Shown here in pieces: positions 55,030 through 55,046 of a stretch of DNA of 64,000 nucleotides (position 1 is its first letter; every line of letters starts with the position of its first letter). The notes beneath the pieces were generated by a model. That model saw only the letters and a list, made by a program, of their open reading frames with translations, was not told where the DNA came from and did not search any database. Both the position numbers and the translations under genes were made by a program. This DNA comes from Escherichia coli (lineage in GTDB: Bacteria > Pseudomonadota > Gammaproteobacteria > Enterobacterales > Enterobacteriaceae), in NCBI RefSeq assembly GCF_003334305.1, contig NZ_QOWS01000008.1; one strand, given 5' to 3'.

Positions 55030-55046
55030 TTGCAACCGTCGTGCCA
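55030..55046 (-). promoter_or_regulatory. sigma54 (-24/-12) promoter of rtcBA
   Basis: Minus strand reads TGGCAC-gacgg-TTGCA, a consensus GG-N10-GC element about 40 nt upstream of the rtcB start. Confidence 0.6.

Follow-up and report, generated by a model that had tools for sequence, protein, structure and literature searches.

Organization of the rtc locus

The window examined here, a 64,000-nucleotide stretch of an Escherichia coli contig, contains the genes malT (+), rtcA (–), rtcB (–), rtcR (+) and glpR (–) in this local order. The gene rtcB (53766..54992, minus strand) encodes an RNA ligase of 408 aa and is the first gene of its operon, as judged from its open reading frame, matches to the RtcB family and the RefSeq annotation of identical DNA. 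It is abutted by rtcA (52746..53765, minus strand), an open reading frame for a 339-aa RNA 3'-terminal phosphate cyclase scoring 779 bits against NCBIfam NF003247 (cut-off 333). With rtcA immediately after rtcB on one strand and rtcR divergent from them, the layout is that of an rtcBA RNA-repair operon.

The divergent gene rtcR (55181..56779, plus strand) encodes a sigma54 enhancer-binding activator of 532 aa, matching the NCBIfam equivalog NF038308 with 847.8 bits (cut-off 650). Its N-terminal CARF-type RtcR domain (residues 2–185; Pfam PF06956, E = 1.9e-85) is fused to an AAA+ Sigma54_activat domain (residues 187–354; PF00158, E = 9.4e-51), and this fusion, together with a score above the curated cut-off, identifies an RtcR-type activator. 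A Walker A motif is found at residue 215, and GAFTGA, which the initial annotation had read in this protein, occupies residues 265–270 (codons 55973–55990). A GAFTGA-bearing AAA+ RtcR, the cognate activator, is thus encoded 188 bp from rtcB in divergent orientation, as had been proposed, and the earlier gene assignments of rtcBA and rtcR agree with NCBIfam, Pfam, the family matches and the RefSeq annotation of identical DNA.

The 401 bp at positions 54900–55300 have 100% identity to E. coli strain 504838; to MG1655 derivatives the identity is 95.3%. A minor polymorphism was observed at codon 7 of rtcB (54972–54974, minus strand), which is CCC (Pro) here versus ACC (Thr) in MG1655 and the other aligned lineages. 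The neighbouring glpR (56761–57519, minus strand) is an intact 252-aa open reading frame in the window (NCBIfam, 553 bits) versus a frameshifted pseudogene in the annotation of the MG1655-derived genome; it is convergent with rtcR, and the 3' ends of the two genes overlap by 19 nt (56761–56779).

A consensus sigma54 element upstream of rtcB

Direct reading of the minus strand from 55046 to 55031 gives TGGCACGACGGTTGCA, preceded by a C at 55047, so that the –24/–12 promoter element is the 17-mer CTGGCACGACGGTTGCA (55031..55047, minus strand), the sole exact match in the window. The initial annotation had placed TGGCAC-N5-TTGCA on the minus strand between 55030 and 55046; the letters are exact and the end at 55046 is right, but the start was one base too generous, the true position being 55031. 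The promoter dinucleotides GG (55045–55044, positions –25/–24) and GC (55033–55032, positions –13/–12) are exactly 10 bp apart within TGGCAC-N5-TTGCW, to which TGGCACGACGGTTGCA has no mismatches. Between the terminal A of TTGCA (55031) and the ATG of rtcB (54992) there are 38 nt, in good agreement with the earlier estimate of about 40 nt. The element lies within the rtcB/rtcR divergent intergenic region, which is 188 bp long with 30% G+C.

Exact TGGCAC-N5-TTGCA occurs once in the 64-kb window against 0.05 expected from dinucleotide-preserving shuffles, and the chance expectation for one strand of the 188-bp intergenic region is about 7e-5 (0.05 × 188/128000). Relaxing the pattern to at most two mismatches yielded 25 matches in the window against 28.8 expected, and since this is the chance level, the exact site alone is notable; apart from a site in feoB (see below), the relaxed matches across the window are uninformative. 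A strict sigma70 scan of both strands of the intergenic region gave no promoter-like site, and an Rfam scan of the whole 64-kb window at the gathering thresholds gave no matches. A repeat search of the intergenic region returned seven AT-rich imperfect inverted repeats, which were set aside as low-complexity sequence because none of them coincides with a block conserved across species.

By the rule used in Table 1 of PMC4591121, the rtcBA transcript in this strain is predicted to start at 55020 on the minus strand (within ~2 nt); the motif centre, at 55039, lies 19 nt upstream of this position, and the rtcB ATG 28 nt downstream. The resulting leader, AGCAAACAACGAAAAGAGAAAAACAAA (54993..55019, minus strand), is short and purine-rich with a GAGA-type ribosome-binding site on direct reading, and is conserved in the E. 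coli alignment.

Published evidence for the rtcBA promoter

The same element has been recovered in K-12 by genome-wide mapping. Bonocora et al. 2015 (PMC4591121, Table 1) list a sigma54 ChIP-seq site, OS35, upstream of rtcB (b3421) on the minus strand, with the motif CTGGCACGACGGTTGCA, a fold-above-threshold occupancy score (FAT) of 17, a predicted start 28 bp from rtcB and the flag 'C', which denotes experimental confirmation in EcoCyc. The 17-mer of the window is letter-for-letter identical to OS35 and its start-to-rtcB distance of 28 bp is also equal; in vivo sigma54 occupancy is thus documented for this sequence by data from another strain (PMC4591121). The earlier opinion that the architecture is the expected one and not novel was sound. 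A second correspondence with that dataset lies at 37733–37749 (plus strand) of the window, inside feoB in the sense orientation, where GTGGCACTGAACATGCT is identical to the weak intragenic site IS42 (FAT 1; PMC4591121); the strong intragenic site IS43 in glgA (PMC4591121) is absent from the window, falling just beyond its end.

Functional data point the same way. Engl et al. 2016 (PMC5175333) obtained RtcR-dependent reporter expression from the 175 nt upstream of rtcB, and Das and Shuman 2013 (PMC3854526), summarising the original result, state that rtcBA stays silent except when RtcR truncated at its N terminus is expressed. Kotta-Loizou et al. 2022 (PMC9650030) mention an rtcBA upstream activating sequence (UAS) and an 'rtc IHF binding site', the sequence of the latter not being given; their supplements name a plasmid with 'PrtcBA UAS', again with no sequence given.

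The importance of the site beyond correct annotation is slight; descriptions of the promoter, of its activator and of how the two are arranged go back to 1998, with genome-wide confirmation in 2015. Genschik et al. 1998 (J Biol Chem 273:25516), cited by all later work, reportedly noted a –12 TTGCA and a –24 TGGCA upstream of a mapped start together with sigma54 dependence, and are said to have in essence already reported both the mapping of the transcription start and the rpoN dependence. The site marks the one point at which the Rtc RNA-repair response of E. coli is controlled, a response that affects tolerance to antibiotics targeting the ribosome and to toxins that cleave tRNA. Marginally new are the positional conservation of the promoter at the population and phylum levels and the candidate enhancer palindrome and IHF site described below, which could serve as guides for footprinting.

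Conservation of the promoter

Alignment of four E. coli lineages that have several differences between their intergenic regions showed the 16-mer and its immediate flanks to be invariant, and the motif is likewise invariant in four other Escherichia species; the E. coli lineages sharing the invariant motif differ by 5–7% in the surrounding DNA. Of 5426 complete genomes, 4504 contain a 37-nt core, and in 3837 of these it is identical. Megablast with the rtcB–rtcR intergenic region gave no match in about 570 of the 5426 complete E. coli genomes; not every member of the species therefore has the rtc control region. A rearranged example was found in E. coli LB858871 (locus L004, 2210–5017), where an inverted piece of rtcB lies between two copies of IS1; as yzgL and glgP now abut this piece, rtcR, glpR, glpG, glpE and glpD appear to have been rearranged or lost at the junction.

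A scan of representative genomes for RtcR yielded 18 loci with a full-length relative. In 14 of these, the strand opposite rtcR carries a GG/GC-anchored match having no more than two mismatches, and two further loci (Desulfobulbus and a Desulfovibrio) have a canonical TGGCAT-N5-(C/G)TGCT in the equivalent place; as for the remainder, the site in a Calditrichia locus is doubtful, being without GC, and one locus has none. The distance from the T of TGGCA to the rtcR start is confined to 128–161 nt in 16/18 loci, spanning Enterobacteriaceae to Desulfobacterota, and in the window itself. For comparison, off-target matches numbered 14 in ~97,000 positions, corresponding to ~0.006 expected per locus in a 40-nt window on one strand. 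TGGCA and GC persist throughout these taxa, with free variation in the spacer, the pattern that would be expected of sigma54 contacts and not of mere shared ancestry.

Candidate upstream elements

For the comparison of upstream regions, all of the 17 sequences were anchored on the predicted start. Three candidate elements emerged. An IHF-like site, AAACAATGAATTA (55074..55086, minus strand; –66..–54), has one mismatch to WATCAANNNNTTR. Perfect copies of WATCAANNNNTTR are found at –68..–55 in Iodobacter, Accumulibacter and three Pseudomonas loci and at –56..–44 in Superficieibacter, in one orientation throughout. Further upstream is the palindrome CGATA-N6-TATCG (55144..55159; –139..–124), a candidate upstream activating sequence for RtcR on the grounds of its conservation: the core GATA-N6-TATC is exact and equally distant in each of the eight enterobacterial sequences, and also in one from Pseudomonas. 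Exact WATCAANNNNTTR thus occurs in 6/17 sequences against 0.42 in shuffles, and GATA-N6-TATC in 9/17 against 0.08, counts that overstate independence because the compared sequences are phylogenetically related.

The third element, AATCTCCGTTTACGGAC (55108..55124, minus strand; –104..–88), contains the partial dyad CCGT-TT-ACGG and is conserved in Escherichia only. It is invariant in five Escherichia species while its flanks vary, with a single T-to-G difference in MG1655 and one other E. coli lineage, and was not recognisable in the cross-species alignment in Klebsiella or beyond. This block might be a second site for the activator, or it might belong to the promoter region of rtcR. Both the block and the palindrome lie inside the 175-nt fragment whose reporter response depends on RtcR (PMC5175333).

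The palindrome also overlaps the best sigma70-like –10 sequence for rtcR, GATAAT (55145–55150, plus strand), itself weak. A looser sigma70 scan gave TTTCCA-15-GATAAT as the only candidate for rtcR, and its weakness makes it a hint. The overlap suggests that autoregulation of rtcR is possible. We tentatively propose, at somewhat below even confidence, that the palindrome would be the RtcR enhancer, ~105 bp upstream of the –24 element, and that one RtcR oligomer bound there might activate rtcBA and repress rtcR; the feature under conservation would then be the ~130–160 bp geometry between the rtcR start and the promoter, from Enterobacteriaceae to Desulfobacterota. As the accessible literature on rtcBA gives no enhancer sequence, the palindrome could be a small new detail, and it may already be in the 1998 paper.

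Mechanism and alternative explanations

The evidence makes it nearly certain that this element serves the rtcBA RNA-repair operon as its sigma54 (RpoN)-dependent promoter, working by standard enhancer-dependent activation, and we found no sequence argument against this reading. The motif, the gene identities, the conservation and the identity to an in vivo sigma54 site are matters of observation, while RtcR dependence and CARF control are taken from the literature.

In the proposed sequence of events, sigma54-RNA polymerase would bind the GG (–24) and GC (–12) within 55047..55031 and be held as a closed complex. RtcR produced from the divergent gene would occupy an enhancer ~90–140 bp upstream, and a bend induced by IHF at about –60 would deliver it to the polymerase. 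Once the repression exerted by the N-terminal CARF domain on the AAA+ domain was relieved, ATP hydrolysis and the GAFTGA loop would bring about the open complex, and transcription would proceed from near 55020 through rtcB and rtcA. The relieving signal in Salmonella is tRNA fragments ending in 2',3'-cyclic phosphate, and in E. coli RtcA and RtcB also contribute.

Two other explanations were weighed. A functionless consensus match, arisen by chance in AT-rich intergenic DNA, draws some plausibility from the shuffled windows, 5 of 100 of which contained one exact match somewhere, and from looser versions of the pattern occurring at chance frequency. Yet the site sits right beside the gene for a sigma54 activator, in the right position and orientation, and is invariant among variable flanks; its position is conserved across phyla (16 of 18 loci, where the background is ~0.006 per locus), and the identical sequence is occupied by sigma54 in vivo (PMC4591121). 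Conservation and the ChIP-seq data refute a chance origin in practice, and we regard it as the most improbable of the readings.

Scarcely more probable is an essentially unproductive site, at which bound sigma54-RNA polymerase forms a poised complex or roadblock that, for example, damps rtcR transcription, with rtcBA transcribed from another promoter. Many sigma54 ChIP-seq sites are indeed not known to be productive (PMC4591121), and in vitro the wild-type rtcBA promoter is reported as very weak, although it matches the consensus (PMC9650030). However, fusions carrying just the 175-nt region respond to RtcR (PMC5175333), the promoter is listed as experimentally confirmed per EcoCyc (PMC4591121), the rtcB strand of the intergenic region has no sigma70-like promoter in our scan, and the site lies downstream of the rtcR transcription unit and not within it. 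A productive sigma54 promoter for rtcBA accordingly remains our reading of the element.

Comparison with known systems

The promoter is real, well conserved, ordinary and already known, being the K-12 rtcBA promoter in a different strain. K-12 and the window share the 17-mer, its strand, the 28-bp distance from start to ATG and the gene order malT–rtcA–rtcB–rtcR–glpR. They differ by one SNP at about –3 (C in the window, G in MG1655) and by several SNPs in the AT-rich spacer and the –104..–88 block, all of them strain-level polymorphisms.

The rsr-yrlBA-rtcBA promoter of Salmonella Typhimurium (STM3521; PMC3844500, PMC7790460) has the core TGGCACG-N4-TTGCAAT in common with the element, together with a divergent rtcR, dependence on RtcR and sigma54, and silence without stress. 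The homologous sequence there, TGGCACGCTGGTTGCAAT, lies upstream of rsr, is bound by sigma54 and directs rpoN-dependent transcription (PMC3844500), and the CARF domain of Salmonella RtcR binds tRNA fragments ending in 2',3'-cyclic phosphate (PMC7790460). The two promoters differ in the spacer bases (CTGG in Salmonella against ACGG in Escherichia) and in their first gene: in Salmonella this is rsr (Ro60), followed by the Y RNAs and then rtcBA, whereas the Escherichia promoter reads straight into rtcB.

Among the other E. coli systems, pspF/pspA, prpR/prpB, norR/norV and zraSR/zraP, whose sites are among those tabulated in PMC4591121, likewise have a –24/–12 promoter beside a divergent activator gene with GAFTGA. 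An upstream enhancer assisted by IHF and an adjacent divergent GAFTGA activator are established features of such pairs. RtcR differs from their activators in its sensory module, which is a CARF-type domain (Pfam PF06956) in place of a receiver, a GAF domain or a PspA-controlled module.

Variation among related loci

Several of the related loci depart from the E. coli arrangement in what lies downstream of the promoter. In Klebsiella oxytoca (locus L008, 2181–2352, minus strand) a perfect sigma54 element and the rtcB start are ~172 nt apart, versus 38 nt in E. coli, and the long rtcB leader has no Rfam or tRNA match. In Intestinirhabdus (L009, 433–674, minus strand) and Superficieibacter (L021, 343–716, minus strand) the promoter position drives rsr (Ro60), followed by two or three YrlA Y-RNA genes and then rtcB, and in a Calditrichia metagenome-assembled genome (L015, 12–322, minus strand) it drives rsr, followed by tRNA genes and one YrlA; the layout in these three is of the Salmonella type.

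A Desulfovibrionaceae locus (L022, 642–2365, minus strand) encodes an RtcR relative of 41% identity with a sigma54 element at the usual distance. Its first downstream gene is for an FrdA/AprA-like flavoprotein, and neither rtcB nor rtcA occurs within 2.5 kb; the protein could be an RtcR-like activator that controls another regulon.

In Pseudomonas sp. GD03944 (L012, 2065–2210, minus strand) the RtcR-linked sigma54 promoter has a pair of adjacent tRNA-like genes just downstream of it, one with an unassignable anticodon loop and the other called as Ser(AGA) at only 74 nt, and these are followed by an SPFH/HflK-like open reading frame and rtcB. A tRNA-Met(CAT) gene occupies the equivalent position in Accumulibacter (L011, 1781–1853, minus strand), and the presence of tRNA-like cargo in operons with an activator that senses damaged tRNA is intriguing.
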